Positions 29,487-60,308 of a DNA stretch of 64,000 nt are shown here, one piece after another. The DNA is from Vermamoeba vermiformis (taxonomy: Eukaryota). Positions within the stretch are counted from its first letter, which is position 1. Each line of letters starts with the position of its first letter. A program made the translations under genes and the position numbers. The notes below the pieces were generated by a model. That model did no database searches, was not told the origin of the DNA, and saw only the letters and a program-made list of their open reading frames with translations. The stretch covers positions 124,001 to 188,000 of the forward strand of contig JBEWZL010000066.1 of assembly GCA_045837725.1 (NCBI GenBank). The letters run 5' to 3'.

Positions 29487-30000
29487 GGAGTCAAGAGAGG
29501 CCGTGAGGACGAAGATCAAGATGCGCAATCCTTTCCCAAAAAACAGGAGATAAATGACTGCCATATAAATAGCCTACCGGAGGAGTTACTGATTTCTGTA
29601 CTGGTCAAAGTTCCTAAAAGACGCCTTGGTATTTATTTATTAATTATTTATTTATATTTGTTGAAATTGGTCTAAAATCAAAAAGCTTGCTCATCTCCGT
29701 TATTACATCGAAATATAAATATTTTTAATAATAGTTTAATTTAATGTTATCTTTTTAGGCAGTATACGGAGTGTCAAAACGATGGTGGCAGATCTCCCGA
29801 GCTCCTGATTTTTGGCGGCTGTCCTGCCTACTAAAGTGGCCCGAATAATCGCTTCCTCTAAAAAGACATCGAAGAGCATTTTATTCCCACGATAAACGGT
29901 TAGTCAGGTGTAAAAATACTTGATGCCTTATCTAACGAATCGTTTCTTAGCGAACGGCAAAACTGTAATCGATTGGAAATTTTATTACAATTTGCGGTAA
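29487..30000 (+). pseudogene. Truncated, frameshifted relic of the NLS-F-box-HEAT-like family (exons 1-3 only)
   Basis: GVKRGREDEDQ...INSLPEELLISVLVKVPKRRL|GT with no in-frame ATG; exon 2 VSKRWWQISRAPDFWRLSC frameshifted; exon 3 NGKTVIDWKFYYNLR; nothing recognisable afterwards. Confidence 0.8.
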
Positions 30001-30477
30001 GTTCTTAATTTTCAACTCGAATATCTCATTTAAATGTCGTTTAACTCAAGATCGTTCAACTGCTCACTGAAATTAACAACAATGAAGCCCATCATGAGGT
30101 GAAATTGCCGATTAGTACTGAATTACATTACAATTCAGTTGGCAGTTGCATGAATCTGTATGCACTGTTGTTGTTGAGGCACACATCACAGCATCGGGTT
30201 CTTGCGAAGAACAACGTGCTGTTGGATCCTCGATTCAACAATGCTTTGAATCTGAATGTACGTGATCTGAGCGGTACGTCGATTCAATTCGAAGCTTCTC
30301 GAATAAGTAATTTGCTTGTAAGAGTTTTTTTTACTTAATAGTTCAACAGAAAGTTCGTCGTAGGAATCAGATTTCTAGAAGGTTAGGATCCATAAATAGT
30401 GCCGTTAGTTCTGTTCTTTCGAAGTTGTTATATTTGATACCATACAAAGTATAAAACTAATACATTATTGAGCATTA

Positions 30478-31946
30478 ATGGTTCAATTTAGATTTATTTT
30501 GTTTCTTGTTGCGGCCGTTAGTCTGATCTGCGTTGGTTTCGCAGTCGATACCTGCCCTTTCGCTTACTCACCTGATGGTGGCAGTGAATACGATTTGGCT
30601 GATATTGCCTATCAGTAAGTATCAGTACAAATAATTTTCGGTACAGATCTTGTTCCTTAAAACCGGAACTTTCGGAAATTATTAATCCTTAATAAGCGCT
30701 AATATTTAGACCTCATTTCTACGCCACAAATTTCAATGGAGTAACGTACAACTTCAACATCAGCATCTGCGCCGCCGCTGCTGGTTGGGAATGCGGACGC
30801 TGCAATTATTACGCTGGTACGTTCAATAATACAACCGTAGTGATATATGTAATTACTCAAATATTAAATCAGGTGTTTGCCAGTACTGGGGCTCTTCTTC
30901 GGATCCGAAAACAAGATGTTTAGGAGGTACCTGGACCCGTGAAGTCATTGGACTCAGTAAGCGATAATCATAATATAATACAGTATAATTAATATTCTAA
31001 TATTTTCGTTCCTAGATGGCGGTGCTAGCGTTCAGATCAAATACTCTAAAGGTGAGGTTTGCGAAACATGCGTCCCTGATGATACAAGAGAGACTGTTAT
31101 CACATTGTTGTGCGACAATACAGGTAATAAAAGAAAATCTACCGAAATTATTCAATAATTAACTTTAATTCTTTTCAGTTGCCGACAAGACCCAGATCTA
31201 CTGGACAAACGTTGCTATTGCTTATCCCGGTCAAAGTCCAGTCAACTACTTCAACGGCACTATCTACTGCTCTCAGCCATTAGTAGCTGCAGCCGCGAAA
31301 GAAAAACAACAGTCCGTCGTTGGATCCGCTTCATATTCTAAACTCTCATCAAACGTCAAGCAACTTGCAGATTCAGTATTCAGGACATCAAACTGATCAG
31401 GGCCAGAAGTGCAATGCCAGTCTGAATACGATGTACTTGATCAGCACTATCTTCGTTGAAAATTGCAACGCTGGTTGTCAGCTCATCGGCAAAGATTTCA
31501 CCTTGACTGAATGCGATAAGCCCTTAGTGTTCCCTTACAATACTTCATGGATACAAACGACCTTGTATACAGACAGTTCATGCTCTGAGTAAGTACCTCA
31601 GTCCATCGGGCTATTTCGTTTGACTTCCATGCCAGATCTGCTTATCAAAAAGTTTAAATATACATCAAACATTCAATTCCATATGTTCATCGTAGAAAAG
31701 GCTCTAATTATTCCGTTCTATAGTCGGTTCAGTTCGTACTTCTCCAGAGCCACCCAATGCGACACCTTTACAGGCTTTACGTACCAAAGTTGCGACAGTA
31801 CGATGGTGTATACTTACCAGTGCAGTGGTCCTAAGTGCAACAATTGCCGATTGGTCGACAAGACTCCCACAAATACCTGCATTGATGGCAAGGAGTATCA
31901 ATGCGTCAGTAATAATGCCGCACCTCGCGCAATGCGCAAAAAGTAA
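30478..31946 (+). CDS. Secreted cysteine-rich protein, N-terminal mannose-6-phosphate-receptor homology (MRH)-like domain
   Basis: Signal peptide MVQFRFILFLVAAVSLICVGFA; SEYDL, TYNFNISIC, GVCQ, VQIKYSKGEVC, RETVITLLCD pattern typical of MRH domains; Cys-rich C-terminus. Confidence 0.6.
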
Positions 31947-32050
31947 GCAACGTGTTGAAGTCCTAATAAATCGTTTGTTTATTATTAAACTATTAACAGT
32001 TAATGAGCGTTGGTTTTGTTTGTAATTTCTTTTACAAAAGACAACGCTAG

Positions 32051-32170
32051 GAAGATCGCGAAGCTGATCTCGTCACAAAAAAATCTAAATACGATCTTCT
32101 CGAAATGAATACGCCCCCAAGGAGTTAATCATGATGCAGATCCTTGATAGAGTACCAAAAAGAAAATCCT
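32051..32170 (+). pseudogene. Small relic of exon 1 of the F-box array family
   Basis: gaagatcgcgaagctgatctcgtcacaaaaaaatctaaatacgatc... aligns by eye with copy 2 exon 1 (36229-36340); translates EDREADLVTKKSKYDLLEMNT../..MQILDRVPKRK with a frame break. Confidence 0.7.
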
Positions 32171-32314: not shown

Positions 32315-35300
32315 ATGGCGGCAAAGGTTGGCCAAAAGCGCAACCGCGAGCTCGACCGGGACTCTCGTATCACAAAAAAAGCAAAATTAATTTCTTTGTC
32401 ATTAAACAGCTTTCCAGATGAACTTTTGATGCAAATACTCGCCAAAATACCGAAAAAATATTTAGGTAAATTAAAAATAGTTCAAACAAAAGTCAATGAA
32501 CGCCTTGGCTCATATTAGTATAGCAATTAAGTATTACAAAATCCTAATAATTTATCGCGATAAAAATTAGGTGCAATTTCAGAGGTCTGCGCCAAATGGC
32601 TTCAGATGACGCGCACACGTTATTTTTGGAAGCTATCTTGTCAACAAAGATGGCCAAATATGCTTGCTTCGGATAGTACCAGTTTTGAAATCGAGAATTA
32701 TATAATACCAACTTCAATAGGTAAGCTCTATATTTTTCGCCATTAACGCTGACAAATCTGACATCCAGTTAGTTCAGGGCGAGACTATGATTGATTGGAA
32801 ATTCTATTGGTATTTAAGGTACATTTATTGTTTATTTTGCACGATTTAACTGGTGTTTGTCGGATCTAGAAAGAAATTTACCCTAGTCAACAAACTGACC
32901 AGTCACTTACCACCAAACATTTCCAACGAGTTGCAACGCTCAGAAATGTACCATTTTTTGCAAGTATTTTCAAAAGTACCGGTTAATAGCCTGTCAGGTG
33001 CGCTAATGGAAGCTGCTTTTGATTTCGCATGCGATTTGGCGCTGGTGCTATTTAACAGAAAGGATACAATAGGCTTCAAATTGGCTCTTAGTGTGATGAA
33101 AAATGTCTCTATACATTCGATCCCAGCCAGTCATCTCGGGTAATAACTGCGAATGGATCCGCATCATTGATGAGATCTAACATTGTATATTGTTTAGATT
33201 CTGCAAACGAGTGCTTAATTTGTGCCAATTAGTTGGAGACTATAATCCAAAATGGACGTTGAAGTTATTCACCATAGCTAATTCATTGCTAAGAGCGGTC
33301 TCAGAGTTTAACGACCGATTCAAAGAGGTCTTAAGCTCAATGACTCAATTTCTTATCAATATGTCGACACTAGACCTTGCTCAGAATGACAATCAAAGTC
33401 ACGATTTGGAATTTCGTTATCCGATATATGGCTGGGGACTATCGAATTCGTTGTCCTTCAGCAAGCAATTGTACAACCACAAAGGCATGTTCACTACTTA
33501 AAATCGATCGTATACTAATAGCATAATAATAATCAGAGCTTACGGAGATTATAATTGACATTGCAAGTAATATGTACTTCACGAGCGATGACTCGCGGAT
33601 CAGATCTGGTGCTCTTTGTGTGGGCTGGTTACCAGGCTATGAACACAAAGAGTACATTCTTAAATATCATCGGTACGTCCATTATTATTGCTTCTATATT
33701 TTCATCTTACTAATTAATGTTACAGCATGACCATGCACGCCATAAGACAGTCAGACCCTGAGATATCTTCTGCGGCCATGCTCGGTCCGATTAAAATCGC
33801 GTACTTAGAGCCAGAATTGCTTAAAGGCATCTTCAGTGATAAGCAATTGAAGAAAATATTCCTAGTCGTGTCGGATGCTCTCGATCGGTCGCACGTCAAA
33901 ATCAAGTAAGACAAAATATGACATTAGGAAAGCTAACTAATATAAATACAAATAGAATGACGATATATTACGTATTACTGAGAGTGCTCACGACTTTTAA
34001 TCGTGATCTTATTACTGATGCGGAGCTCGATGAGTTAATTTTACGAGTGCTTCGAATGTTCACTGAAATAGAGCAATGGAGGAATCACGAGATGAAATCT
34101 ATTTATAGAATCGATAAACTTGGCTCATTGTTTGGCGAACGACTAGCTGGCGTAAGTTCTTAAGGTCTCATTAAAATTGATGACACATAATTACGTTTAT
34201 TGTTCTTAGAAAATGGATGCTATCAAAGCCGTTCTGTTTTTGTTAGCCCAATGCAAAAAAATTGCATCGCCCGAGCAGATGATAGAAGGTTACATCAAAT
34301 TAGGTAACAGTGCCATAAAATTGTTCGATTTACTCGACTTAATGTGATTGTTTAGGAGTGAAAGTTAAAGGCTCAAAGTTCAATGAGGAATTCAAAGAAC
34401 TCACGCAAAAGATTACAAATGTTGACTTGCCATTCCAAGTCTCCATAATCAAATGTTACAAGCAATTTGGTTTTCGATGGGCCAAAAATGCCGATCCAGA
34501 AGAACGACAACAAATCATTGAGACGTTACTAAGAGCTATTCCAGATTGCATGTATCAACTTGGTCAACAACGTGTCGAGTCGTATACTGATCCTACGGGT
34601 GGCCCAAAAGATTATCCAATCACGTGGACCGAGTTGCAACAAGACCGCAATGACCTTCAAAAGATCGATTGCGTTGGTAGAGTTGAATAAGGCACCGTTT
34701 CATATGTCTCGAAAAGATATTAAACCAATCAATGACCAGGATGAAGGTTTCAAACCTCAATTTAGTATGGTACGTACATCAACTGAGTGATTAATGTCAT
34801 TTTAATGGTAATATACAGTTTATGTATGACGTTCAAATATTCACAGCACAACTTCTGAAGATAATTCAGTACCGGAAATTCAAGGGAATGTACATGCATC
34901 ACGCCCAAGATGTCCTACACGCAGCACTGGCATGTTTTCGATCGACTAATAGCAACCACGAGTACTTGACAATAATAGACCTCTTGTCTTGCGCCAAAGA
35001 AGAAATGGAGCCGTCGGAATTGTTCAAATACGTTGATATCATTATTGAGTGTCTGCTGGAAAAACAACAAGGCGTTGGGGGTGAAAAGGCGCAAAATCAG
35101 TTTTTGTCGTTATTTCGCTACGTAAGTATTCCTTGATATACTCTGAGTTGACATTATTTACTACAGTGCTTGGGTATACTGAAAGATATGCCGGAGTATG
35201 CCAACGTCGTCATCATAACGAAAGCAATCAACATTTGTATTGGCACGGAAAAATTTGTGATTCCGCTCTTCGCAGATGTACGTTCATATAATGCTACATT

Positions 35301-36087
35301 AATGATGACTAACGCCATATTGGGCAGTTAAGCGATTTCATTTATTACTTTATAACTTGCTGGCCTCGGTACACGCACCAAGCAATCAAAGTGTCCAAGT
35401 TGGGTCAGTGGCTCACGGTTCGCTTAACGCAAGATTTAAAGTCAAAGGTAATTATCAATATTAAATTTTCACAACATCAATCCAATTGTCATAAATACTG
35501 ACGTCATGCTCGGCCAATAGGAGGACTCGACCGATATTCTGATGTTTTTTGCTATCGTTGCAGGCCTGTATGGCATCGAATACGTATTGGTACGTGATAT
35601 TGAATACATTGATGAGTCATATTGACGTGTTGACCAGGAGGCGCTGTGTGTCGATCCAGATGCGCACAAATACAACTCTCACGAGAGCTATTTAGACTTG
35701 GTTGTACCTCATTGTCAAGTCCTATACAAAGCTGTTCGTCGAGGCAATGTCAAGATTAGTCCGCTGCATCATAATTATTTGCGCAAATTTTTGATCTTGA
35801 TCGCGATCTACCGAGTTGACAGCTACGCAGGAACCATTGCTGCAATACCGAAGCAAGGCAGTGAAAATATAGAAAGACTACAAAGTGCGATTGAGAGTGA
35901 CAAGTTTGATACAGGAGTACCCAAGCTGAATAAGTTGGTCAAAAGTCTCGATCTCGCCGGAATTTGTCGCGAACTGTGTTTACAACGAGCAAAATATGAA
36001 GACCACATAAATTATGGGGACATTGACAGCGATGAAGATATGTTTTTCGTTCGACGACGGATCAACCCTGGTCTGATGGCGGAATAA
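32315..36087 (+). CDS. F-box array copy 1 (NLS, F-box, HEAT-like solenoid, DTGVPxLN C-terminal domain); +1 frameshift near 34679, possibly a pseudogene
   Basis: KRNR...KKAK, SFPDELLMQILAKIPKK, FWKLSCQQRW, IDWKFYWYLR, SDDSRIRSGA, DTGVPKLN; intron positions shared with the other copies. Confidence 0.75.
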
Positions 36088-36188
36088 CGTGGGCCTTGTT
36101 CCGTATCAAGAATGTTTTTTCGTCCTTATTGAATTCGAGATAAACACCCTAAACAACACGCTTCTTAGTATATTTATGTTGGTATACA

Positions 36189-39100
36189 ATGGAAACTCAA
36201 CTTGGAGTCAAACGAAGCCGTGAGGCCGAAGATCAAGAAGCGGATCGTGTCACAAAAAAATTAAAATGCGATCGTCCGGATATTAATATGCTACCAGAAG
36301 AATTACTTATGCAAATACTTGTTAGAGTACCCAAAAAATATCTAGGTAATTTTTTAATCATTCGAAGTAAATTTTTGAATTAATTCCTCGAACGCTATCG
36401 ATTATCCAATGCAATAGGAATATTGAATAATTTCGAAATTATTATTATTAGGGTCTTTATCCCAGGTATCACCACAATGGCAACTGATCACACGATCAAG
36501 AGATTTTTGGCGGCTATCGTGTCAAAATCGATGGACAACGATGGTCGCGCCGATAGTTTAGATTTTGATAGAGATGTCTATTTAATTCCAACAGTTGCGT
36601 GTAAGTCAAATGATTACATGAGCGAACCCAAACCTGGATCGAGTTTAATCTTCTTTATTTAGTCAATGGCAAGACATTAGTTGATTGGCAGTTTTATTAC
36701 AAGCTCAGGTATGAAATATTTGGTATTTAGCAACAAGATCTCACGTACATCCAGAAAAAAATTTGGCAAAACCCTGCAACGAATTACAGAGCACTTTGAC
36801 CGAGGTCTTGGCATCGAAATTGCAGCACCAATGATGGAAATTCTCGCAGGGGGAAGCGAGCTTCTGGCAGGCTCAGTGAACAAAGTATTTGAAACTTTGT
36901 CCATCATCTCGATCCTTGACAGCCGCAAAAAAATATTTCGTTCTTTCGTTGCTGTACCAGCCGTTGATTTTGTTTGCGATATGGCCTTGCTACGCTTTAA
37001 TAGAGGCGAGATGGACTGGTTCAAGTCCGTAATAATGTTATTGGACCATTTAGTTGGATTTAACAAGCCCAAAGCCAAACTTTTTAGGTAAGATAGGACT
37101 AGTCTAACATAGTTTTTATTGATAATCCTAAATATTAATATTATATTTTATTAGTTTTTGCAAGCGCACGTACGATCTTTGTCTGCTGATCCGAGACAAA
37201 GAGCCTAAGAGGATTACTCCGCTTCTTAGAATCATCGCTCAACTTTTCAAAACAATGCCTTCATTCGACGAACGATCAAAACGCTTGTTTGAATTGGTTA
37301 CTGAATACGTCATTAAATTGGGACCGCTGGATCTTGGTCTAGTGGAAGACGAGAATTTCACCGACTTGGAATTTCAGCACCCATTCGCAAGCCTTGTAGA
37401 TCGTATGATACTCAAGCAGTTCGCTAAAATCAAAGGTCAGTGGTAATGTCTAATATTTAACTTGTCTAAAAATGCCGTGTTAGAGTCCCACGATATAACG
37501 GTGGATGTTGCCAGTCGAGTTTATCACAGCAGCGATGATTGGAAGATCAAAGCGAGTGCGATCGCTGTTGGATGGAACCAGTTCAACAAAACAAAAGAGT
37601 ACTGCGACAAATATTACTTGTGAGTAGCGCTAGTGGTCCTATAAAAGAAATTGGAGTATAATGGTATTTTTATATCATTTTAGATTAGCTGTGCATGCAG
37701 TCCAACAAACCGGGCATCAACAATTAGAGTTTGCCGGTCTCGTAGGGTTGTACATTACATGTTGTTAAAAAATCCGAGAATTGTGAGACATTTTTCAACG
37801 GCGAGCATGCGACAACATTGTTTGACATTTTCACGAACGCTTTGACACGATATGATGCGCCGCATATGGGGTAAAAATAATACAAATATAGTAATATGGC
37901 ACTTACTAATAGAATCTCTAGTTTGAAATTCTACCATGTTCTGCTACGCATTTTGCCTGCCGTTCAACCAGACTTGATTTCAGACGAGTTGCTTGATCAA
38001 TTTATTGCAAATGTTCTTAGTGTGTTTGCACGACAAGGAGATTTAGCTCAAAAAGAAGACGACTTCGTGTACGCTTTTAGTCAAGTCGGATCAAAGTTCA
38101 AAGGTCGCTTAGCCAACGTAAGTCCACTTAGCTAATTTGACCGGAGTTTTTTCATTGACACGTGACACAGAAACTCGATCAAGTGAAGGCAGTATTATTC
38201 AATATGGAAGTTGCAAGGTTTAAGCCTGACAGATTATTGGAGTGCTACGTCAATTTTGGTATAAATCGAAAGCTAATCTCGTTTAAAATAATCTCTAACG
38301 TACGTATGATTTTTAGGTGTGGCAGTGCAAGAAAACGAATTCGCTGCAGAATTTAAAATTCTCGCGAAACAGATTGCTGATGGCACATTGCCATTGAAAG
38401 TACCCATTCTCAAATGTTACGGACGATTTGCAGATGTTTGGATACGCTTTGCAGAATCAGAAGATGAACGTGAGGGCGTTATAAAAGCACTCTTAGAAGC
38501 CATACCTAAAGGAGTGAGCGAATTCGGTCAAAGCGGTATTTTTTCTGAGGAAGAAAAGCAACCAGAAGTTGGCCCAGAGCGATTTCCCAATACAAGGGAA
38601 GAGATGCGTGCAGAATACGAGGCCAATGATATGCAAAAGATTACTATTCCAGTGCTCCATCGGACACCAAAACACTACGTCCCGAAAGAACATTTGACAC
38701 GTGTCAATCCCAGCGGAACAATTCGTCCGGACAACGGCGAATTGATCAAAGGAGTATGAACGTACTGTTAGATAATATTATAATATAATACTAACAATTG
38801 GTTTTAGGATATTTCGCGGTCGCATCTGTATGCCTCTCAGTTGCTCATGCTTGTGATTGGTGATGACGGCAGATTTGCAAAGCACGCACAAAGCGTTCTT
38901 AACGCCATGTTAGCGACCTACCGTGTCGGTTTCAACGTTGTCAATCTGCATCACACGATACTGGGCCTGTTAGCCCTCGTCAGGCCTGAGATGGAGTCTT
39001 CAGAGTTTATCAAGTACATCGATATAGTTCTTCACACTATGGCCCACGAGATCAACACAGAACAGCCAATGCACGAAGCAGTGAAAAGTGGATTGTCAGA

Positions 39101-40079
39101 TCTGTTCGCTTTTGTAAGAGCACGAAACTTGGCGTATAGTCAGAATTACAGTAATAATCATTATGATAGTGCTTTAGTTTGTTGGAAGGTCTTGGCGTGA
39201 TGAAAGCGAGCACGATTAAAAATGCCATCGATGTCTATCTTTTGATTTACGACTTCGCTGACCCGAGGTTTTTTGACGTACGTGATTGGTCAACCGATTA
39301 ATTAATAGGCATTTAACTAATAGAATTCATTTCAGATCCACGAGTTGATTTTCTATCTTATCACGACTTGGCCGAGAAACGCTTATGAAGGCATTCGCCA
39401 GTCAAATTTGGCAGACTGGCTCCTTTTCCGTATCAAAAAAGCGAAGTCACAGGTAAGCTTTGTTCATTTAATATAAGGCATTGGATTAATAGTTTTGATA
39501 GGAGCAGATGGCGCCGTGCTTGTACGTCTTTGCGACTTGTGCAGTATTTTATGGCATTGACTTTATCTCCGTAAGTTCGGTGAGTTCTTTCTTAGAAAAA
39601 GTGACTAACGTAACTGATATTAGATGGAACTTTGTGTTGATGACCCTAATGAAGACGAGTTCGAGTCCTCCGATCAATACTTGGCGCGAATCATACCGTA
39701 CTGCAGAGCGTTGTACGTGGATGCATCAAAGAGCGATATGGACAGTCGTTGGATGGAAAAATTGATGTACGTGAAGTTTATGCGGAACTTTTTGATCTTG
39801 TACGCCATCTATCTCGTTCATAATCACTCGGGCGAGATTTCCTTGTTGACGAAGGTCGAAGAGTATGACTCAGATGTCCTCAAGGTCGTGATAGCGAGCG
39901 AAAAGTCATTCGATACAGGCGTGCCTGAGTTGAACGAGTACTTTAGAGGACTGGATCTGGACGGTCTTTGCAAGGCTTTGTCATTAAAACGGGTTGTGTA
40001 CTCAGACGAAGAAGACGAACCCGTGGATAATGTTTCGTTCGAACGAGAGGATGATGATATGGAAATAAATGACGAATGA
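36189..40079 (+). pseudogene. F-box array copy 2; full length but with two apparent frameshifts (~36549, ~37751)
   Basis: GVKRSRE...KKLK, MLPEELLMQILVRVPKK, DFWRLSC, VDWQFYYKLR, SDDWKIKASA, DTGVPELN, acidic tail; in-frame TAG at 36559-36561 and TAA shortly after FAGLVGL. Confidence 0.65.
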
Positions 40080-40253: not shown

Positions 40254-42280
40254 ATGGCAGCACAAGTTGGAAGGAAGCGCAATCGTGATCTAGATCAGGA
40301 CTGCCGTGTCACAAAAAAAGCAAAATTATTTATACCGACATCTATATGTAGTCTACCTGACGAGATATTGCTGCAGATACTTGCGGTAGTACCGAAAAAA
40401 TATCTAGGTAATTTTCCTCTGCATCTAAAATTCCAGCATTACCTTACATAACGATTACGGTTATTGAAAAATATGCTAATATTATTGCAAAAATATAGCC
40501 GCAATTTCAGAGGTCTCCCAGAAATGGCTGCGGATAACGAACACGCGAGACTTTTGGAAGCTGTTCTGTCGACAAAAATGGCCGACTATGGTTGCATCAG
40601 ATGATTTAAATTTTAAAATCACAGATTATATAATTCCTGCTTCAAACGGTAGAAACAAATCAGTGATCAAGTGTTACGAACGATTTGCCTATCATTGGGC
40701 CAAAATTGCCACACAGGAAGAGCGGCAACAAATCATCGAGGCGCTGCTTAATGCTATTTCTTATGAATACAAGTTTGGGCAAAACGATGTACCTTCCTCC
40801 TTATTAGAAGAAAATGATGGCAGTCCTGAAAATTATCCTCAAACTTGGAACGAGTTACAAAAAGAGCACAATCAGCTTGAGAAGCTCGATTGCATCGGCA
40901 CACTCCCCACAGCTCCGTACTTTATGTCAAGAGTGCATATTAAACCGTTCAATTCGGTGACGCACTACAGCATCAGGCATTTTCAGGTACGTAACGCAGT
41001 AATTACTATTAGTGCTAAGTTATGTTTGATTAGACAGTACAAAACTACATCACGGAACTGCTCAAAATAATCAAGTACCCTCTGTTTAAAGGAATGTACG
41101 TGCGTCATGCCCAAGACGTGCTTCACGCAGTACTTGCCACGTTTCGTTGGCATCTCGACAGCAGCATGAAATGCTTTGCTATAATTGACCTCATGCAGTA
41201 CGTCAAGGAAGAGATGGAACCGAGTGATTTGAGCAGATACATTGGTATCATTCTTTATCGCCTGTTGGAAAAATTGCAATATTCTTCTTTTCTGTTGTAC
41301 GACGAAAAGCTGAAACAAGGAATTGCGCAATTGTTTCACTACGTAAGTGTTTTATATAGGTGCTGCACGAATATTTGATTGACGCTTTGAATCAGTGCTT
41401 GAAAGTCCTGAACGAAATTCCGGAACTCTCCAATGTTTACATTATTACAAAGGCCATCAACATCTGTTTAAAGATAGAAAAGTTCTCAATTCCACAAGTA
41501 GCGCCGGTACGTGAAAAATTAACTTGGTGTTGACAGTACGTTAAGACAATAATTACAGTTGGGCGAACTTGTCTCTACTATTTCATCACGCAGTGGCCTC
41601 GGTACACGCACTCAGCAATAAAAGAGTCCAAATTAGGCCCTTGGCTCATTAAACGTATCACAGAAGAGGCCAAATCTCCGGTAAGAAGTTCAGTTGAATT
41701 TCTGAGGTCATTACGCTGACTGTATCTCCGCTTGCAGGAAGAATTAACTCCTCTTTTGATGGTGTTTACTTTCACTGGTGTTTTATACGGCATTGATTAT
41801 GTTTTGGTACGTTTGAGGAAACTAGTCGGGATCCAGCATTGACACGTTGACATGTCCAAACAGGAAGCTCTTTGTGTAGATCCAGTAATACACAAATATA
41901 ACTCGCGCGAAAGCTACTTAGATATGATTATACCTCATTGCCAAGTGTTATACAAAGCTGTCCGCAGAGGCAAAATCAAGCTCAGTCCGCTGCGTCACAA
42001 TTATTTACGCAAATTTTTGATTTTGAATGCAATCTATTGCGTAGACAGGTACGCGGGAGGCATTGCTGCCATTCCTAAGCAAGGACGCGATAATATTGGA
42101 AGGCTGCAAGATGCGATCGCGGACGATAAGCTTGATACTGGCGTGCCGAAACTGAACAAGCTCGTCAAACGTCTGGATCTCGCTGGAATTTGCAAAGAGC
42201 TGTTCGTACAGCCAGCAGAGCATGAGGAAGAATACGAAATGAGCGATGAGGACTACGACGATATGTTCATCAGAGTTTAA
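40254..42280 (+). CDS. F-box array copy 3; short form with in-frame internal deletion of the central region
   Basis: N- and C-termini closest to copy 1; exon 2 (YIIPASN) runs directly into SVIKCYERF, which lies ~1.7 kb further downstream in copy 1. Confidence 0.75.
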
Positions 42281-49184: not shown

Positions 49185-52100
49185 ATGAATGCTATAGAAA
49201 TATTTATTCTCCCAGAGGAAGTGTTGCAGCTGATAGTTCTTAAAGTTCCCAAAAAAAGTTTAGGTAATTACATCCGAGCTCGGTAGATTAATTTAGTGTC
49301 TACTCAATTAATTGCCAATAAATATTATCTAATTTATTAATAATTTTAGCTGCATTATCTTTGGCCTCAAAATACTGGCTGCAGATCACGCGATCAGAAG
49401 ATTTTTGGAAGCTGTCATGTCACGAGAAATGGACAACAGTACTTGCTTCGGATAGAAAGGATTTTAGTGGCGATGAATATTTGATTCCTACGCTAAATGG
49501 TTCGTTTTCAGTGAAGTCCGATCGGATTCGCATCTGTTTGACACCTTATTTCGCAGTTGCCGGCGAGAAAGTAATTGATTGGAAATTCTATTATCAGCTA
49601 AGGTACGGTTATGACGCTATAATTGGACAAGGTATTAACCTTAAAGCAGGAAAAATTGGAGCAAACTTCGGACCTGGATCGTTTCAATTAGTAGCAAAGA
49701 CGAGAGCGTGCGGGAATTATGCGACCATATGACTAATACAAGCGAGCTCGACTTTAATATCCACAATTTTCTGGAGTTGATTGGCAGAAATATCCGATCT
49801 CTACCCGAAAACATGACAACGTTGTGTATGGACTTTTTATGCGATCTATGCCTACTGTGGTCCCAAAAGACCGATATTACGGTTGTTAATACCCTCATCA
49901 GTGTAAAATATTGCCTTATTCAACATTATCGAATCGAATCCAATCAATTCGGGTAGGCCTTTTTATTTTTCTCCTTTTTTCAACGATTAATTAATAATAA
50001 TTATATTCTAGGCTATGTAAGAAAGCGTTCAAATTGTGCGAGCTATTTCGAGACAAAACGTCTTCGGTGATAGCCTTGTTCACCACCGCCAAGACTCTGT
50101 TTTATTCGATACCTCAAGTACACGAACGAGAAATGGCGTTGTTTCGAGGGCTAGTCGAGTTTTTTATTAATATGGGAACGTTGGACTTGTACCGACAAAA
50201 ATCAATGGGGACGTCTTTGCAGTTTGTATACCCGTATCCAAATGGTAGTTTGATGAGCGATGGGCCTATTAATAATAGAGGTACGAAATATAGTATGGCT
50301 AAATACGTAGCTTATACTTGTGCAGATATGTTAAATAGCATCACGATGGAGATGGCTAGTCAAGCGTATCATTCCAGTGCTGATTGGCGCATTCAAGCGA
50401 GTGCCATTAATGCAGCGTGGATACCAGACTATACAGACCCGGAATATCTCCGTAAATACTTTGAGTACGTCCTTGAAAGTGTCACTTGAATTGAACTGAC
50501 GATCTATCTACAGCTTGGCGATGCACGCTGCGAGAAAAGATAACGCACAAAATTTTTTTTTTTTCGGGGTTATTGTTTTAAATTTTTTTTGCAAAAAAAT
50601 CAAAATCTTTTTTCGAAAAAATGGTTTGAGATCTTCACGTACACCTTGCCTCAGTTCCAATTGTAAGTCATCGCCAACGAACTGTGATTACTGCAAAAGA
50701 ATTCTAATTAATTTTTAATAGCAAGCAGTTTTATGTGCTGTTGTTGCTTCTCTTGCCTGTGATCGATCCGACGGAAATTTCGGATATTTTGCTCAACGAT
50801 TTCATCACAAATTTATTCACAGAAGCTCATCTACTTTATGAAGATAAGTGGGTTATACGAGAATTCGAGAAGATTGGAGCAGTGTTCAAGGAGAAGGTAC
50901 GCATCTGCGCTTAACTTTTTGCATCCGTCTTCAATGACTTATGTTATTTAGAAACTCGAGCAAATTAAATCAGCGCTCTTCGACTTAAACAGAACGCTTA
51001 ATTTGGAGGCAGAGCGGCTGTTGCTTTGTTACATTAACATTGGTAAGACAGTCAGATTTTACCCGATTAAAATTAATTTCCCGCCAATACTACTGATCAG
51101 GGCTCAATGTCAAGGGACATAATTTCGCAACAGAGTTCAGACAGCTCGTGCAACAGATCATCGATCGATCGTTGCCGTTTGAAGTGTCACTAATCAAGTG
51201 CTACAAGCTATTTGGTGCGACTTGGCTTCAATTTGCAGAATTTGAGGAAAACCGAGAGGCAATCATTGAAACTCTCTTGATGGTTATACCACCCAAGGTA
51301 TACGAGTACGGTCAGTGTGAAATTGAGATTGACTTTGAAGCCGCTGAACTGCCAGACTACCCTGAAACAATAGTCGAGTTGTTAAAAGAGCACACGCATG
51401 CAAGTCTACTGAGCCAGTTGTCAACTTCGCTTCAGTCTTACACCAAAAGTGACATACCCAAGTATATCGTGAAGAAAGAACACTTGAAGCCTGTCAATCC
51501 CAACGGAAATATCAGTGACATTTACCGCAATGACACAATGCTGAGTGAGAAGGTAAGACTACGTGCTGTCAAGAATATAATACCTTAATGAATATTGACG
51601 TTTGTAGACCATTGTGGATTCGTACGAGTCTGCAAGACAGCTATTTTTTATCGTGACGCAGAACGAAGGAAAATATGTTCAGTTCACGCAATACGTACTT
51701 CACGCAATGTTGTCATATGGCCACGAGTTGCGCGATGATGACTTGATTGATTGGTGCATGTCTGTGACGGATCTGATCGAAATGATCAAGCCAAACGTGG
51801 ATCCAATTGATTTGACGAAATATATCGATATCATTCTTAACTTGGTAGCTAGAAAAACTATTGACAGTTCGACGTTTCTCGATTTATACGCGTCTCAAGT
51901 GGTAGCTCTTGCGGAAATGTTTGCGAAGGTAAAAACAAAAGTTCATATATTATCATATTATTACTCATTAGCTTGCAACAGTGCTTCCATACTTTGACTG
52001 CATTGCGCAAACCTGTCAAACCCGAACTGATCGCGACAATGATTTTCATCTACTTGCAATTGTACGACGAGAACGTACCGAGAATACTGGAGGTAAGTAC

Positions 52101-52897
52101 CAACATCTTTAGAACTTAACAATATTAACTCCGAATTCAGCTCTCGGAGTTCATTCGGTGCCTCTGCGTAGGATGGCCTCGAGTTGCATATGATGGGATT
52201 AAACGCTCTATGTTGGCTCCTTGGCTTAACAAACAACTCCAGGAGAATGACCTAATGGCGCCGTATTTGAATGTTTATTCAGTTATTGCTGGACTGTACG
52301 GCATGGACTACGCTATAGTACGCCTCTAATCCTGGTGATAGCATGCGCTAATGTTTTTGCTATCTGTAGGCCACACTATGGAAAAATGATATGGAGCTCG
52401 CTGAACGAACGATCAGTGCTTGTAAGAGACTATACTCAAGAGCTAAAAGCGAGGTAGTCAGGCTTAGTGAGGCGGATCTGATATTTCTACGCAATTTTTT
52501 GGTACTTCAAGCAGCGCACGTTCTGAACCCACGCACGGGAACTATTTCGATCATTCCAAAGACTGGCCCTAGCGCAATTAATTTGTTAAAAGAAGCATTG
52601 CGTCACAACGAGTTCGACACTGGCGTACCAGAACTGAACGAGCACGTTAAAAATCTTGATAGAGCTGAAGTTTGTCAGCTTTTGCTTGTAAATCGAAAAA
52701 ATGAGGATGATTGTGAAGGCGAAAGTCCCAAAAGAGGACCGATTCCCCTCGCGAATAAACAATTGCATCGATTTTCGAGTTTATTATTAATGTGGACAAG
52801 GAAAGCACATGACAATCTTGTAATCTTTCATTATATTATTGTTAGTATTCGTTATTATGGCAGCATCCCTGGGTGGGAACAGAAAGCGCGACCTTGA
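49185..52897 (+). CDS. F-box array copy 5; lacks the N-terminal NLS, has a disturbed homopolymer-rich exon (~50545-50625) and an extended C-terminus overlapping copy 6
   Basis: MNAIEIFILPEEVLQLIVLKVPKK, DFWKLSCHEKW, IDWKFYYQLR, SADWRIQASA, DTGVPELN; first in-frame stop at 52895-52897. Confidence 0.65.
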
Positions 52898-55800
52898 AGA
52901 TCCTGAAGACAAGCCAGTCACGAAAAAAGGAAAATTAATTTACCTGGAAATATACGATCTACCTGAAGAGTTGATAACGGTTATATTGGCGAAAGTGTCC
53001 AAAAAAAATCAAGGTAATTTTAACATTTAATTAAATTCTAGAAATTACCGCAATATTTGCATAAACAAACAATTCACTAAAACAAATAATTAAATTAATT
53101 TTATATTTAGAAACATTATCTTTGGTTTCAAAACAATGGCTGCAGATCACGCGATCGCGAGATTTTTGGAAGCTGTCGTGCTATCATAAATGGCCAACAA
53201 CAGTTGATTCAGACGTTAAGAACTCTGACTACCAAAATATCGCTATTCCAACGTTATTCGGTAAGCAAAATTTAATCTGTGCGATCTGCGAAGAATTCTA
53301 ATTTACTGCAGTTAATGGGCAGACCTTGGTCGATTGGAGATTCTATTACTATTTAAGGTAAGATGTCTTTATTACGCGAAGGATCATCGTTTTAGAGACG
53401 TCAGCAACAAACATTGGGGAGGGTGCGGAACAGGAGGAGAAGCGCTCGATAATGGATCTCATGAATGCAGTGACTTTCATATTACCACTGCCTTTAAGTG
53501 GACAGAATACTCGCACTTAATACTGACGAACAACGTTTCGACTGATTTAAGAGCCTCAGTTTGCATCTTAATGGTCGATTTAGCTTTGGTGTGGTTTACT
53601 CAGGACAAAGCTGAGTGGATTTATACCATGTTGTGTGATTTGGAGAGACTTATCGGAATGAACGCATTCGCAGCAAGTAGCTTTCGGTATTATTTAAAAT
53701 TGGCCTATTCTACTCAAACTAACATTATTTTAGGCTCTTTAGGGGTTTATATGAACTTTGCCTGAAAATTCAAGACAAAGCTCCGGCTCTACTGCTGTAC
53801 TTATTACAACTGACAGTCCGAGTTTTTCACACAATCAAATATTACGATGGACGTGCGAAAAGATTACTAGGCTTATTGACCGAGTTTATGATTCATTTGG
53901 GGTCGTTGAATCTCGGTCAGTCTGAGCGTCAAGATCTGATTAAATTTCAGTATCCGCTTGAAAAAGAAATAGTTTTGTTGGATGCTCGCCTGGCTAATAC
54001 TGGTAAAATACTGATCGCAGCACTTCATTTCTAATAATTCATATTGTGCTAGAGTTCTTGGACGTCGTCATCGACATTGCAACTCGTGTGTTTCATTGTA
54101 GCAGTGATTGGAAGACGAAAGCAAGTGCAGTTTGTGTTGCGTGGGTGCCTGATTGCACGGATCCAGAGTACTTCAATCGCTATTGCAAGTAAGCGAAACT
54201 CAATCCAAAAATATTTGCAGAGCACTAACGTTTATTTAACGAGCCAGCTTAGCAATGAATGCGCTTTCAAGCAGTGACCCAAATATTGGCTTTGCAGGCC
54301 TCGTTGGTTTAAACAAAATGGTGATTCAGATCTCAGTTAATTGGGCCGCACAGCCACGCTTTACTGATGATCAAGTGACAATGATGCTTGCAAAGTTCAT
54401 CTCAGCATTTAATCGATTTCCTGACGTCATGTAAGATCTTAATAGGCAGTTGTACTGTTATCTATGCTGACCTAATGTCTAGGATCGACATCTTCACTGC
54501 GTTGCTGGCACTGCTAGAATACGTTAAGCCGGAGCTTTTACCCGATACATTACTCCGCGATTACTCCGTAAATATGCTGCGAGTACTTGCGAACGCTGAC
54601 CAAGTCCAACAAGAATTAAGACCAATACTCTATGGAATCAAAATGGTTGGCGCAACGTTTAAAGATCGCCTTAGCAAGGTATAATTAATTGGTCGAGCAA
54701 TAGAATCAACGAGAATTAATTATCAAGTAGGAAATGGGCTTTGCAAAAGTTGCTTTCTACGAAGCTGCGATGACCGGTGCACTAGAAGTCGAGAGATTAT
54801 TAGCAAGCTACATTCAATTTGGTGAGTAGTGATGATGGCTGCTTTTTCGAGACTTTAGTTAACTCGTTCACTTATTAGGCGTATTTGTTCAAGGCCGAGA
54901 ATTTACTTTCGAGTTCAGACAGCTGGTAAAACAAATCGCTGATGACACCTTGCCATTCAAAGTCTCTGTACTTAAATGCTTCGAGCACTTTGGTGCAATT
55001 TGGATTTCGATCACAGAGTCAGAAAATGAACACGAAGAGATCGTTCAGGCACTACTTAACGCTATTCCTAAAGAAGTATGCGAGTACGGGCAAAGTCCGT
55101 TCTACCCATGGTCCATAGCCGCACTCGAGAGTGGTCAAGAGGAATTTCCCGAAACAAAGGCAGAATTATACGCTAATCATTCGTACGATCTCAGTCAGCT
55201 CAATTTGTCGTTTTCATTCTACAAACGTGATGCTCGCTTTGCGCACTTTGTTCCAAAAGAAGATTTGAAGCAAGTAACTCCGAGCATACGATATCGCTCT
55301 AACTTTGACGCACAATTACCAAAACTGGTAAGCAGAGCAAATATTTAATGTTTAAATTAAATTGATTGTATTATTTTTTGCAGCAAACTAAAGAAGCCTT
55401 TTATCCGGCAATTCAACTCGCTCAGATTGTTGCAAGCAACAAAGGCAAATATCTGAAGCACGCACAAACTGCACTCAATGCGTTGCTTGCAATGGAGTTC
55501 GGTTTGCCTGACGGTGGTTTTGTACCATGGAGGGAATCATTAATGGCGCTTCTTCAATTGGTCCAACCAAATATGGACCCGAAAGATCTGCTACATTACG
55601 TTGGAATCATTCTCGATCTGATTTTACAATGGAAAATCAAAGCTGAACCTAATTTAATCGTGGACCTGTTTTCATCGGTAAGCTGTTTACAACGATCGAG
55701 CCTTCGTTAATATATTGCGCAGTGCGTTGAAGCCTTAATGAAACTACCAAGACTCACCGTCGACGCAATCACTTTAACGAAGTTGATCGATGTGTTTCTC

Positions 55801-56566
55801 GTGCAATCCCCCCACACTCTAAAACCTCCAAAAGTAAGCTAGAACTGCAGATTTATGGAAGAACTGATGCTCACTAATGATAGTTCACCGAATTTATGCA
55901 AGGCATATGTCTCGAATGGCCAAGAGCCGCGCGTCAAGCTTTGGAGTGTTCCAACTTGCCTTTAACACTTAGAGCACATATCCACGACACTGACCCATTG
56001 GTATGAAACGTTTTCTTGCTGCTTTATCCTTATTTGTACTTCACAGGAGAGTATGGTGCCATATTTGACCCTTTGCGCCAGTTTAAGTGCACTTTATGGT
56101 TACGATAACGTGATGGTACGTTGCATCACGTATTATATACAAACTCTCAGTAATTCTGTTATAGGTTGTTCTTTTAAGGTCAATCATGGACCGGGATAAT
56201 TTTGAAGATCGAATTGTGCGTCTCTGTCGGGAATTGTATATAGCAGCGACAAATGGAAAGATTACTTTGAGTGAAACGGATCTGCTGTTTCTACGCAATT
56301 TTTTGGTCCTGGAAGCCGTGAGTTGGCGCACAGGGCGCATTGCAATCATTCCTAAGTCAGGACCTAGATCTGTTGAAAGGCTACGAGAAGCATTAGCGGC
56401 AACGGAAGAGGACAAGCTTGACACGGGCGTCCCAGAACTGAACAAACACATTACTGGTCTGGATCTTGCTGGAGTTTGTAAGCTTCTGTTCTTAAACCAA
56501 AAAGATGAGAATGATAGCAACGATGAATCTGATCTCGAAAGTGGAAACGATGATAGCGAGATCTGA
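52857..56566 (+). CDS. F-box array copy 6
   Basis: MAASLGGNRKRD...KKGK, DLPEELITVILAKV, DFWKLSCYHKW, VDWRFYYYLR, SSDWKTKASA, DTGVPELN, acidic tail. Confidence 0.8.
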
Positions 56567-56662
56567 AGGAGCTAATTTCGCAGAATAAACATTTTTTGCA
56601 AATACCTTGGATTGAAAGCAACATGATAACTCGCTATTTTTCTTTCGAAAGAAACAATTACA

Positions 56663-59600
56663 ATGAATACGGTCCCGCGAGAGAAAAGAAGCCGCGATCC
56701 GGAAGATCAAGAAGAACGGGCCACCAAAAAAGCCAAATTAAATTATGCAGAAATTCACGACCTTCCTGAAGAGTTAGTGATGCAAATACTCGCGAAAGTG
56801 CCTAAAAAAAATCTTGGTAATTAAATAAATAATTTCATACCAATTCCATTTATTTATATCTCAGGAATTCAACGAGTTAGCTGCTATTCAATACGTCACC
56901 GATTCTAATTTTAATTTTTAAAGCCACGTTATCTTTGGTTTCAAAACAATGGCTGCAGATCGCTCGATCGCGAGATTTTTGGAAGCTGTCATGCAATCAG
57001 AAATGGCCAATGGCCGAGTCAGAATCAATTAAGTTTAATGACTTCGGAGTCACCATTCCGACGATAACAGGTACCTCTACAGCAAGATCTTTGCCAGTGG
57101 ATAGAACTCCGAACTAATATTTCTTTATCAGTGAAGGGAAATGCAGTGGTCGATTGGAAATTCTTGTATTATCTAAGGTATGCATATTTATTACCAGTAC
57201 AGATCGATAACAGCCTCTATTGTAGAACGAAACTTCGGAAAATGAACAAGCAATTCTCAGCTCTTGCCAAACAAAATAACGACAGCGGAGTGTTGGAAAG
57301 TCTGGCCGAACAATCAGCTAAATGCATCGATATTTTCTTCGTTTCGTTGCTGCCACATTTCGCGCGGTACTTGTTACATGGCAAAATCTCAGACGAACTG
57401 AGACTTACATGTTGCATCTTGTTATGTGACTTAGGACTAATTTTCTATATCAAAAACCTCCCTGATATGGCATTAATCATGCTTAGCACGTTGAAAAGTT
57501 TCGTTAAAAATTTCCCTCCGAGGACCTTTCAGTCCACAGCGCAACCACAAACCTCCTTCAGACTTTGTCGAAATCTGCTGCAATTCTGCCAAGAGATTCA
57601 AGACAAAGACCCTACACTACTGCTCGACAATGCCCTGCCCACAATAGTACAAATATTTCAGCTGCTGTTTGTCGACGAACGCACGAAAAAGCTTCTTGGT
57701 CTACTGACCAAATTCATGATTCATTTGGGAACACTCAAACTTGGCCAAGTGGAGCGTCAAGACGAACTCAAATTTCAATTTCCACTTGGGAAGAATATCG
57801 CTCTGCTCAACGATCTTCTTGCTAAAAACGAAGGTGAGTTTGTCGAATTGTAGAAGGAAATGATTTAAACAATTTGACACTTTTTGCAAGATCTGTCAAC
57901 AATTATCATCGACACGGCTACTCAGGTGTACAATAACAGCGGTGATAATTGGAAGATGAAAGCGAGCGCCATATGCGTCGCGTGGATACCCGAAATTACA
58001 AAAAAACGATGGATAAATAAGTATTACGAGTAGGCGTTGTTCAATAAGACCGCATTATTCATATTAACTTTTGTGCAATCAGATTGGCAATGAAGGCATT
58101 TGCAGACTGTGACTCCAATGTGTCATTTGCAGGCCTTGTTGGGCTGAATAACCTCGTGCAACAGAAAGACATTCGATTGCGTCTGACTGATAAGCAAAGA
58201 AGCGACATCTTCTACGCCCATACGGATGCCTTCACTCGATCTCCTTCGCTCGTGTAAGACCAATCTAACATTATCGTCTAACGCCTGATACACACCACTA
58301 ACACAACGTTTCAAGAATTGAGTTGTATCGCTCAATGTTGACCCTGCTGAAAGACAATAAGATAATTCTTTTGTCTGGCAAGACCAGACTCAATGAGTTC
58401 ACATCCAAAATGATGGCAGTATTTGCCCTGCTTAAAGACCTTCCAGAGGACGAGAGACACATTGCTTACGACTTCAATTTGTTTGGCTCAGTCTTCAAGA
58501 GCCGTTTTAGTCATGTAAGTTTGTCGCTTTCAAGGCAACTAATTTCAATGTGCAGACATTAGAGCAAGTGAAAGCAGCGTTCTTCGAGTCAGTTCAGGCT
58601 GGATTACTCGTGCCCGAGAAGTCGTTGGCAAGCTACGTGCAGTTTGGTACGAGTGACAACTGACAAGATTGGTCTTACTGAGACTATTGATAGGTGTTAG
58701 TGTCAAAGGACCTGCATTTGCGTCGGAGTTCAGACAGCTTGCCAAACAGATCGTTGATGGCACCTTGCCGTTTAAAGTCTCCTTGCTCGAATGCTACGCA
58801 CAATTCGGAGCTATTTGGGTTCAGTTCTCGGAATCAGAAGACGAGCGAGACCAAATTGTTAACGCACTTTTGACAGCAATTCCTGAAGAAGTATACGAGT
58901 ACGGCCAAAGATTATTCTTTCCCCACCACATTCAGGAACAAACAGAACTGCCTCGATTAAAAGAAGATTTGTTTAACGAACACACATTTGACTTGCATCA
59001 GCTGCAAATTACATATTCAGCGCCACAAAAGAAGAAAAACATTGTCCCTCGGTCTGTCGCTAAAACTGGTTTAGTCAAACAAAAAGGTTACCGCCACAAT
59101 CATGACTTGAATACTCTTCCAGACGTAAGACCTAGCTCGTTCTATATGATATCATTTACTAACAAGACTTGTTATTTAGAATGCAATGATGTCATTCAAC
59201 TTTGCACGGCAGCTCAGTTTGATTGTCACGCAGCAAGACAAAAAATACCTCAAACACGCGCAAAATGTGCTCCACGCACTGTTAGCAATGGAATTTGGTG
59301 TACCAGACCACAAGTTAATCGAGTGGTTACCTTCTGTTGCGAGCCTTATGGAGATAATTTCTGTGAATATGGAGCCAAAGGACTTGCTTAATTATACTGA
59401 CACCGTTCTGCGAGTGTTGGAAAACCTTATTAAACAGAAGGGCAATCAAACTCAAGACGAACTTGCACTTCAGTTATTCTATTCGGTAAGACATTTATAA
59501 CATAGACGAGTAATTTTGCGTGTCTAATCAATGGACAGTGTTTTGACAATTTAATCAACTTGGCACCGTATGTCCAGGCAAATCATCTAGCAACAATTAT

Positions 59601-60308
59601 TGGCACCTATGTGAAACTCCTTGAAAAGGAGGTTCAAATCACATTAAATGTAAGTACATTTTATACCTTTACTATGATTTAAGTAATTTATTCCGTCAGC
59701 TCGCCGAATTCATCCGCTTAGTCAGCCTCACCTGGCCCAGACTCACACCAGGTGCCGTACAATTCACGTCCTTACCGCTAGATGACTACTTTGACTTGGA
59801 CCCTCCACTTTCTGCGCCTTCTTTAAATGTGTACGCAAGTTTGAGTGCACTGTATGGCCTCAATTGCATGATGGTAAGTTCATGCGTTCAATAACAGCGC
59901 TAACATTCATTCTGGTAGCGAGTGCTCGAAATCGACGAGGATTACCAAGCAGATGTTATCCACTATTGCAAACAAATATATGTGGCAGCGACAAGCGGGT
60001 TGACGGCTTTGAGTGAAACAGATCTCACATTCCTCCGCATCCTTCTGGTTCAGAATGCTGCTCACCGTATTAACCCCCGCACGGGAAAAATAGGAATAAT
60101 TCCGAAAACGGGCCCTCGTGGCATTACAGCGCTGAAAAAAGCGATTGAGGATGATACATTCGATACGGGTGTGGAAGAACTGAACGAGCACGTCAAGAGT
60201 TTAGATATAGATGGCATTTGTAAATTTATGTTCGTCAACCGAAAAGAAGAGGACAGCGAGGAAGAGGAGGAAGACGATGAAGAAGGAAGCAATATGACAG
60301 ACGAGTAG
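56663..60308 (+). CDS. F-box array copy 7
   Basis: MNTVPREKRSRD...KKAK, DLPEELVMQILAKVPKK, DFWKLSCNQKW, VDWKFLYYLR, DNWKMKASA, DTGVEELN, poly-Glu tail. Confidence 0.8.

Follow-up and report, generated by a model that had tools for sequence, protein, structure and literature searches.

A 64,000-nucleotide (nt) stretch of Vermamoeba vermiformis DNA (assembly GCA_045837725.1, contig JBEWZL010000066.1, positions 124,001 to 188,000 of the forward strand), referred to as a whole as the window, carries one family of paralogous genes at window positions 29487-60308, all on the plus strand. We interpret this cluster as an old tandem birth-and-death array of a lineage-restricted F-box family, the members of which are most likely nuclear substrate receptors of SCF (Skp1-Cul1-Rbx1) ubiquitin ligases. 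The F-box would dock on Skp1 within the ligase, the long helical body that follows it would recruit substrates, and the variable stretches that differ among the paralogues would permit recognition of different, probably nuclear, substrates. Slow birth and death would have produced the present mixture of three intact copies, one degenerate but open copy, one internally deleted copy, two frame-shifted copies and two relics.

Organization of the array

The extent of the family was defined by motif scans and by tblastn searches with draft proteins. The tblastn matches span positions 29771-60245 at E values of 1e-5 to 1e-171, on the plus strand only, and no family match was found elsewhere in the 64-kb window at E<1 except for weak relic matches at 32051-32163. 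The array comprises seven paralogous genes (c1 to c7) and two N-terminal relics (A and B), which are arranged head-to-tail over ~31 kb and are interrupted by two unrelated genes at ~30.0-32.0 kb and ~42.6-45.1 kb. Each gene has ~1000 codons and 13-16 exons, apart from the shorter c3 with 7 exons. Adjacent copies are separated by spacers of 96-174 nt, with stop-to-ATG gaps of 96-101 nt at 36088-36188, 49085-49184 and 56567-56662, and no shared motif was found in the 100 nt that precede each start. Such short spacers imply either extremely compact 3' ends and promoters or read-through transcription.

Gene models were built with a splice-aware dynamic programme, followed by a homology-guided spliced aligner in leave-one-out mode and by hand checks. 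Introns are short: the models contain 89, of 41-121 nt and with a median of 52 nt, and these fall into 18 position clusters. Twelve of the clusters are common to six or seven copies in a single phase; one more is present in all seven copies, in another phase in c3, and a further one in five copies. Intron loss is evident twice in c7 and once in c5. A CTRAY branch-site motif lies within the last 35 nt of 44 of the 89 introns, 4-30 nt from the acceptor, compared with 11.3 +/- 3.0 in shuffled sequences. Two modelled introns of c1 (34673-34716 and 34774-34818) are artefacts that bridge a frame shift. In the spliced alignment the same landmarks recur from copy to copy, namely LPEE, DFWKLSC..KW, DWKFYY, L.FQ.P, S.DW+IKASA, FAGLVGL, LPF.VS...CY, HAQ..L.A, FLRNFL.L, DTGVPELN and an acidic tail.

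Only c4 (45309-49084; 15 exons, 1011 codons), c6 (52857-56566; 15 exons, 983 codons) and c7 (56663-60308; 13 exons after the loss of two introns, 988 codons) are cleanly intact, with canonical splice sites throughout. Damage or degeneration is seen in the remaining four. Copy c5 (49185-52897; 14 exons, 998 codons) is open but degenerate: the basic N-terminus is lost, a 23-nt A/T repeat in the exon at 50514-50666 replaces the FAGLVGL helix, and the stop codon is missing relative to the nearly identical database fragment P0004, such that the frame continues for 41 nt into c6. In c3 (40254-42280), which remains open over 557 codons, an in-frame internal deletion of ~450 codons (roughly residues 108-560) fuses exon 2, where the F-box region ends, to a point midway through the LPF exon. 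Copy c1 (32315-36087) is full length and uses a GC donor at 33485 in intron 5, but the frame changes near 34682 and then meets a TAA, whereas the 85-95% identical fragment P0014 is open at this site; c1 has probably become a pseudogene recently, unless the assembly is in error here. Copy c2 (36189-40079), likewise full length, has two frame changes, one in exon 2 near 36546-36550 and a second between 37750 and 37758, and is a pseudogene unless the assembly is wrong. None of the frame shifts in c1 and c2 lies in a homopolymer.

The two relics represent still further decay. Relic A (29487-29997) retains the first three exons only, which encode the basic stretch with LPEE, the second half of the F-box and the DWKFYY micro-exon; it has no ATG and contains an in-frame stop at 29846-29848. 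Relic B (32051-32169), ~150 nt upstream of c1, is a degenerate, frame-shifted exon 1 in which the basic stretch is followed by a decayed LPEE helix. Several copies of the array are thus decaying. The initial annotation of this region had described seven full or near-full copies plus two relics on one strand, with shared intron positions and shared landmarks, as a birth-and-death array; the tblastn matches and intron clusters bear out the count, the orientation and the intron positions, all of the landmarks recur, and the relics, frame shifts and deletion are the anatomy expected of birth and death. The description as full or near-full fits c4, c6 and c7, but flatters the frame-shifted c1 and c2, the deleted c3 and the degenerate c5.

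An F-box split by an intron

The N-terminus of the proteins begins with a basic stretch of the form KR-x11-13-KKxK, which precedes the F-box in six of the seven aligned copies and resembles the consensus of a bipartite nuclear localization signal (NLS). The F-box itself is interrupted by a phase-1 intron, and because the intron splits the domain, the Pfam match comes as two collinear halves. When the 88 in-frame exons of the seven copies were scanned one by one, exon 1 of c3, c4 and c7 matched positions 1-14/21 of the Pfam F-box and F-box-like profiles, and exon 2 of c2, c4, c6 and c7 matched positions 23/26-42/46, with 14.5-18.9 bits for each half. In c7, where the domain lies at 56753-56987 around the intron at 56817-56923, exon 1 covers profile positions 1-21 and exon 2 positions 24-42, and the halves together reach 34.4 bits (15.5 + 18.9) against a gathering cut-off of 20.5; for the F-box-like profile in c4, the halves score 15.4 and 15.4 bits against a cut-off of 24.3.

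Profile searches against the PDB agree, in that they led to F-box proteins at the corresponding parts of the domain: the exon-2 profile matched GID2 best (E 6e-4), with FBXW21, FBXW24 and FBXW12 next, and the top match of the exon-1 profile was residues 4-26 of FBXO6 (E 0.4). The F-box is in addition the best-conserved part of the family, with a mean pairwise identity of 0.46-0.58 compared with 0.19-0.32 in the variable stretches. As judged from the sequence, the F-box is real, the whole profile of PF00646 / PF12937 being covered in two halves.

A complex predicted between exon 1 plus exon 2 of c7 and Schizosaccharomyces pombe Skp1 (SKP1_SCHPO) is consistent with Skp1 binding. The prediction is weak, with a score of 0.35 (best control 0.02), a between-run contact agreement of at least 73% and a partner predicted local distance difference test (pLDDT) value of at least 66. 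Of 78 solved complexes, 51 reach the mark of this test, as do 2 of 108 mismatched pairs, but passes at or below 0.60 include only 5 of the 78 solved complexes and all 4 of the passing mismatches among 180.

A long body predicted to be helical

The F-box is followed by a short tryptophan-rich linker (DFWKLSC..KW, DWKFYY), a body of ~870 residues and the acidic tail. No Pfam family reached threshold for the body in any of the 88 exons. Four islands within it are conserved (S.DW+IKASA; LPF.VS..KCY...W; HAQ..L.A; and FLRNFL...DTGVPELN), with mean pairwise identities of 0.40-0.51, compared with 0.19-0.32 for the stretches between them.

Structure models, which cover single exons, are helical: an AlphaFold2 model of c7 exon 4 (202 residues) has 8 helices at a mean pLDDT of 57, and a model of the C-terminal exon, based on a 16-row alignment, has a mean pLDDT of 67. 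Comparison of the exon-4 model with 48,161 chains using VIA-align yielded Z scores of 8-12.8, mostly to HEAT/ARM solenoids, headed by a chain of human Mediator (7emf_X, Z 12.8) and a chain of a nuclear pore complex model (Z 11.1), with importin-beta (9.5), Cnd3 (9.4), CAND1 (9.1), Kap95 (8.7) and PA200 (8.4) below them and RanBP5, TOG, Tor and designed repeat proteins also listed; VIA-align states that for helical repeats a Z under ~13 may mean only a common arrangement. The C-terminal exon gave Z<5, reflecting a helical hairpin only, and no usable match to this exon was obtained from the ESM Atlas. Look-alikes by ESM, at 0.93-0.96 with low recognition, are BIG2_C, the Tra1 HEAT region, DNA-PKcs_N, HEATR5A and the PSME4 HEAT region, and sub-threshold Pfam matches were seen to CAS_CSE1 (E 0.006; 15.6 bits in one c3 exon, against a cut-off of 25), PSME4_C and PDS5. 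Searches of PDB sequence profiles with the HAQ, LPF and C-terminal exons found nothing meaningful and no karyopherin. Two further leads were discarded: an internal repeat hinted at by MAFFT, which placed exon-4 rows on the exon-5 region, was unconfirmed by hhalign, and a match of the LPF profile to designed helical repeats (E 1.7e-5, with no single stretch passing) was read as compositional.

On balance, these models and look-alikes suggest that the body is probably a generic alpha-solenoid of HEAT/ARM-like type. HEAT repeats are often too divergent for profile or self-alignment tests. A relationship of the body to karyopherins is unsupported.

A helical body of this length behind an F-box need not belong to a substrate receptor. 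In yeast, Rcy1 is an example of an F-box protein working outside an SCF ligase, and it is conceivable, if unlikely, that the F-box described here also binds Skp1 outside the ligase, or is unused, and that the body has a scaffolding role, for instance in trafficking or in chromatin. The look-alikes include trafficking and chromatin scaffolds (BIG2_C, Dopey, PDS5 and the condensin subunit Cnd3), and the fixed islands, which are the most conserved parts besides the F-box, suit a common partner better than diverse substrates. However, the Pfam scan found no match to Sec10 or another scaffold family, and seven paralogues at 30-43% identity suit a repertoire of receptors better than a single scaffold role.

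Transcription and splicing of c4 to c7

Copies c4, c5, c6 and c7 are transcribed and spliced. The evidence comes from run X9, a set of contigs labelled 'RNA?' as a guess, the organism of which is coded differently from that of the best-matching DNA sample. The X9 pieces were aligned at a likeness of at least 95%, 25 of the 42 reaching at least 99%, and the comparison covered 20 kb, with c1 and c2 lying outside this span. Contigs of X9 skip GT..AG introns in each of c4 to c7, and the gene models match all eight of the splice joints listed for these copies (of 20 joints), including 47122/47171 and 48116/48162 in c4, 55677/55723 in c6, and 57070/57132, 57177/57226 and 59124/59180 in c7. Depth in X9 over c3 is zero.

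No RNA run is listed among the sequencing runs that carry the sequence, and three raw RNA-sequencing runs (X16, X17 and X18) bear the species label of the best-matching DNA sample. In X18, reads match c5 over only ~35 nt (51170-51204), with unrelated sequence on both sides and a C>T difference at 51190; this match is probably a short conserved island of a paralogue or of another organism, and not expression of c5.

Distribution of the family

When a profile of the C-terminal exon was compared with 1.84 billion representative proteins, nine proteins of 90-149 residues, single-exon-like, were recovered at E<1e-10, and a profile of the LPF exon recovered four, one of which is the window's own. 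Altogether ~12 short fragments were found, as singletons on contigs of 1.7-9.4 kb. Nine of these are close to copies in the window, with identities of 85% to c1, 89% to c2, 91% to c3, 98% to c4, 99% and 93% to c5, 92% and 92% to c6, and 90% to c7, so that every copy, damaged ones included, is matched by at least one fragment of a close counterpart (85-99% identity). The remaining three fragments are divergent, c2 being the nearest copy at 41-57%. For two divergent relatives of the C-terminal exon (P0007 and P0009), the longest contig listed is 9447 nt in each case; they may be tandem neighbours on a single contig from another organism.

No full-length annotated relative was present in the libraries searched, and an open reading frame (ORF) of 261 residues had no match when compared with longer proteins. 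A metagenome scan with the C-terminal profile pointed to three loci, each of which had only a 39-residue match at 40% identity and was rejected as a relative. A literature search, which was not targeted at such a family, returned nothing on one. By these sequence comparisons, the family is unrecognized and narrow in distribution.

Slow evolution under constraint

The paralogues are 30-43% identical, with c6 and c7 at 43% and c1 and c3 at 59%. Synonymous sites are saturated, the proportion of synonymous differences per site (pS) being at least 0.66 in all 21 paralogue pairs, and because of this, codon tests among the paralogues are not feasible. Even for the youngest pair, c1 and c3, the synonymous distance (dS) is ~1.6, with a ratio of non-synonymous to synonymous rates (omega) of 0.18; omega ranges overall from 0.18 to 0.29. 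By these values, the paralogues are ancient.

Constraint is also visible on a shorter time scale. Relative to the window, 33 coding differences are listed in c4 to c7 (32 from X9 and one from X17/X18), of which 15 are non-synonymous and 18 synonymous. At a site ratio of 3.6:1, this corresponds to a ratio of non-synonymous to synonymous differences per site (pN/pS) of 0.23 (confidence interval 0.11-0.48; p 3.6e-5 against neutrality), a value that rests on the listed differences, with five others outside the list, and on low contig depth and partial coverage. In c6, ten of the listed X9 differences are concentrated in 256 nt (55536-55791), ~4x the density elsewhere. One exon has eight of them, of which five are conservative replacements and three synonymous, and the next exon has the other two, both synonymous; a patch of divergent haplotype, a tract of gene conversion or an error in a low-depth contig could each account for the cluster. 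Taken together, the sequence comparisons indicate an array that is old, under purifying selection and in slow attrition, and not rapidly diversifying.

This pattern of constraint bears on whether the cluster is mostly a graveyard, that is, a family being lost and without present function, the transcripts of which are noise. Such a reading would explain the two relics, the frame shifts of c1 and c2, the deletion in c3, the degenerate c5 and the very low RNA signal. It is nevertheless very improbable in our view: the reading frames of c4, c6 and c7 are unbroken for 983-1011 codons, their splice sites are canonical and in part confirmed by reads, the pN/pS of 0.23 differs from neutrality, and the fragments of close counterparts also keep their frames open.

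The same measurements speak to the proposal of the initial annotation that the array is a diversifying nuclear immune repertoire, in which F-box proteins with a karyopherin-mimicking HEAT solenoid would trap viral or bacterial proteins that bear an NLS and pass them on for degradation. The combination of an F-box, an NLS-like motif and a probably solenoidal body is compatible with it, as are the variable stretches between conserved islands, the tandem array with dying members, the presence of importin-beta, Kap95, RanBP5, Kap114, Kap123 and importin-4 among the structural matches at Z 8.4-9.5, and the sub-threshold match to CAS_CSE1; moreover, the DW(K/R)IKASA..VGW stretch may resemble the HEAT B-helix signature of importin-beta proteins. 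Yet Mediator, nucleoporin, condensin, CAND1, TOG, Tor and designed repeats match at equal or higher Z, no exon matched IBN_N or a karyopherin model at threshold, and no karyopherin was matched by the PDB sequence profiles of three regions. In addition, the pN/pS of ~0.23 and omega of 0.18-0.29, together with saturated synonymous sites and close-counterpart fragments for all seven copies, fit slow turnover and not an arms race. We consider such a repertoire highly doubtful, and we give hardly any credence to its strongest form, an unseen class of nuclear SCF receptors with a fast-diverging HEAT-like solenoid that serves as a decoy transport receptor, or as a sensor, for foreign (viral or bacterial) proteins bearing an NLS, which would amount to array-encoded, ubiquitin-based immunity. 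The array is an ordinary kind of gene-family expansion and not a demonstrated immune system.

Other elements of the initial annotation fared differently. Its F-box is corroborated by the collinear Pfam halves and the PDB F-box profile matches, its bipartite NLS recurs, as a motif only, in six of seven copies, and the high divergence between landmarks and the unrecognized status of the family agree with the identities of 0.19-0.32, the lack of a Pfam match for the body and the ~12 database fragments. The HEAT-like fold is weakly supported, in that helical models and solenoid matches were obtained, but neither a HEAT/ARM Pfam match nor an internal repeat, and the Foldseek check did not return a match at E<=0.001. 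Ongoing diversification is unsupported, given the saturation in 21 pairs, the fragments of close counterparts for every copy and the low pN/pS; karyopherin mimicry loses ground to the unrelated solenoids that match as well or better and to the lack of a karyopherin-defining domain among the exons; and capture of foreign proteins, given slow turnover and constraint, is unsupported.

Observations that weigh against a receptor role

We return to our preferred interpretation, a family of nuclear SCF substrate receptors, which has several observations to contend with. At the N-terminus, each half of the F-box taken alone falls below the Pfam gathering score in a scan made on single exons and not on the spliced domain. 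The Skp1 prediction may reflect likeness to solved structures, because F-box and Skp1 are a textbook pair, and the nuclear location is predicted from the motif alone. For the body, both fold models are of low confidence, Foldseek searches of both against the PDB gave no match at E<=0.001, and the VIA-align scores all lie in the range where a common arrangement may suffice. No Pfam match to HEAT, HEAT_2, HEAT_EZ or Arm was found among the 88 exons at E<=0.05, nor any HEAT/ARM match in 10 central exons, including the KASA and FAGLVGL exons, even at E<=10, and an internal repeat was not found by hhalign self-comparison of the family (best off-diagonal E 0.27).

With respect to expression, X9 depth is low, at 1-4 over the copies compared with 10-19 over the neighbouring gene, and X16, X17 and X18 contain 3, 2 and 7 matching reads, mostly partial, counts that in themselves speak neither for nor against expression. 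As for the state of the array, part of it may be functionless, given the damage or degeneration in four of its seven copies; the frame shifts in c1 and c2, from which part of this decay is read, could also be assembly errors.

Comparison with known F-box and solenoid proteins

The proteins resemble F-box proteins of the FBXO class in SCF ligases, the body of which is neither WD40 nor LRR, in having an N-terminal F-box of ~45 residues, with an LP.E...IL start and a W...LW-like end, and a variable interaction region behind it, the F-box being the best-conserved part. They differ in the body of ~870 residues, which matches no Pfam family. ARABIDILLO and PHYSCODILLO of land plants are described as nuclear proteins that combine an F-box, leucine-rich repeats (LRR) and Armadillo repeats with an NLS, and the plant genes of this type as conserved, in single or few copies and with high identity across land plants (PMC4982054). 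The array shares with ARABIDILLO an F-box, an alpha-solenoid (here predicted) and an NLS-like motif, whereas it is divergent, tandem and confined to a narrow lineage. No LRR or Arm Pfam match of the ARABIDILLO type, and no sequence similarity, was found for the exons of the seven copies.

Expanded F-box families of nematodes and plants, reportedly proposed by Thomas in 2006 (Genome Res) to target foreign proteins, are like the array in being tandem and in including many paralogues as well as pseudogenes, with an F-box that is conserved while the rest of the protein varies. The array, by contrast, has only seven members, which are ancient paralogues with constrained recent evolution (pN/pS ~0.23) and no sign of rapid turnover, and none of the F-box-associated domains FTH, FBA, FBD, Kelch or DUF295 was matched in the 88 exons. 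The likeness to importin-beta and other karyopherins consists of the all-helical, repeat-like model, the structural matches at Z 8.4-9.5 and the sub-threshold CAS_CSE1 hit; unlike karyopherins, the 88 exons contain no N-terminal Ran-binding domain (IBN_N) and no significant sequence or profile match. We know of no karyopherin with an F-box.

Neighbouring genes

The window has a guanine-cytosine (GC) content of ~40% and contains eukaryotic genes with short GT..AG introns. An origin of the array from a giant virus or transposon was considered and rejected in view of the uniform GC content, introns like those of neighbouring genes and the lack of mobile-element domains. At 60333-61297, on the minus strand and convergent with c7 ~25 nt past its stop, lie ORFs that encode a UBR-box zinc finger (E 4.7e-7) and a SPRY domain (E 5.9e-14), and therefore a second ubiquitin-ligase-type gene abuts the array.

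The unrelated gene between c3 and c4 (~42400-45250, plus strand) shows seven GT..AG joints in X9, with introns of 50-169 nt and a depth of 10-19. Its product of at least 442 residues looks like a signal peptide followed by a luminal domain and several membrane helices, and its exons have no Pfam match. The gene in the gap between relics A and B (~30350-32020, plus strand) is modelled to encode a cysteine-rich, secreted-looking product rich in N-glycosylation sites, with no Pfam match in its larger ORFs. Farther away, the window holds a Zn2Cys6 transcription-factor ORF at 22594-23298 on the minus strand (E 1.6e-8), an intron-less ORF of 543 residues with an LRR_6 repeat at 3874-5505 on the minus strand, and a YedE/YeeE sulphur-transport exon at 8941-9525 on the plus strand. 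The last of these was considered as a baseline for divergence and set aside: its nearest non-self relatives, at 88, 86 and 83%, come from other (environmental) sources and permit no rate comparison. Taken by themselves, the Zn2Cys6 ORF, the CTRAY branch sites and the introns of ~50 nt would tentatively suit a fungal host better than an amoebal one.

Implications for the F-box superfamily

Lineage-specific F-box expansions are common, and the array is at present without bearing on a long-standing open question. Because the intron splits the domain, exon-level or prokaryote-style gene callers miss the F-box, which is in this respect a useful case for annotation. If our interpretation is correct, the body would represent a new substrate-binding module for the F-box superfamily, and the array would provide a compact example, from a little-known microbial eukaryote, of how a repertoire of SCF receptors grows and decays, with intact, truncated, frame-shifted and relic copies side by side.

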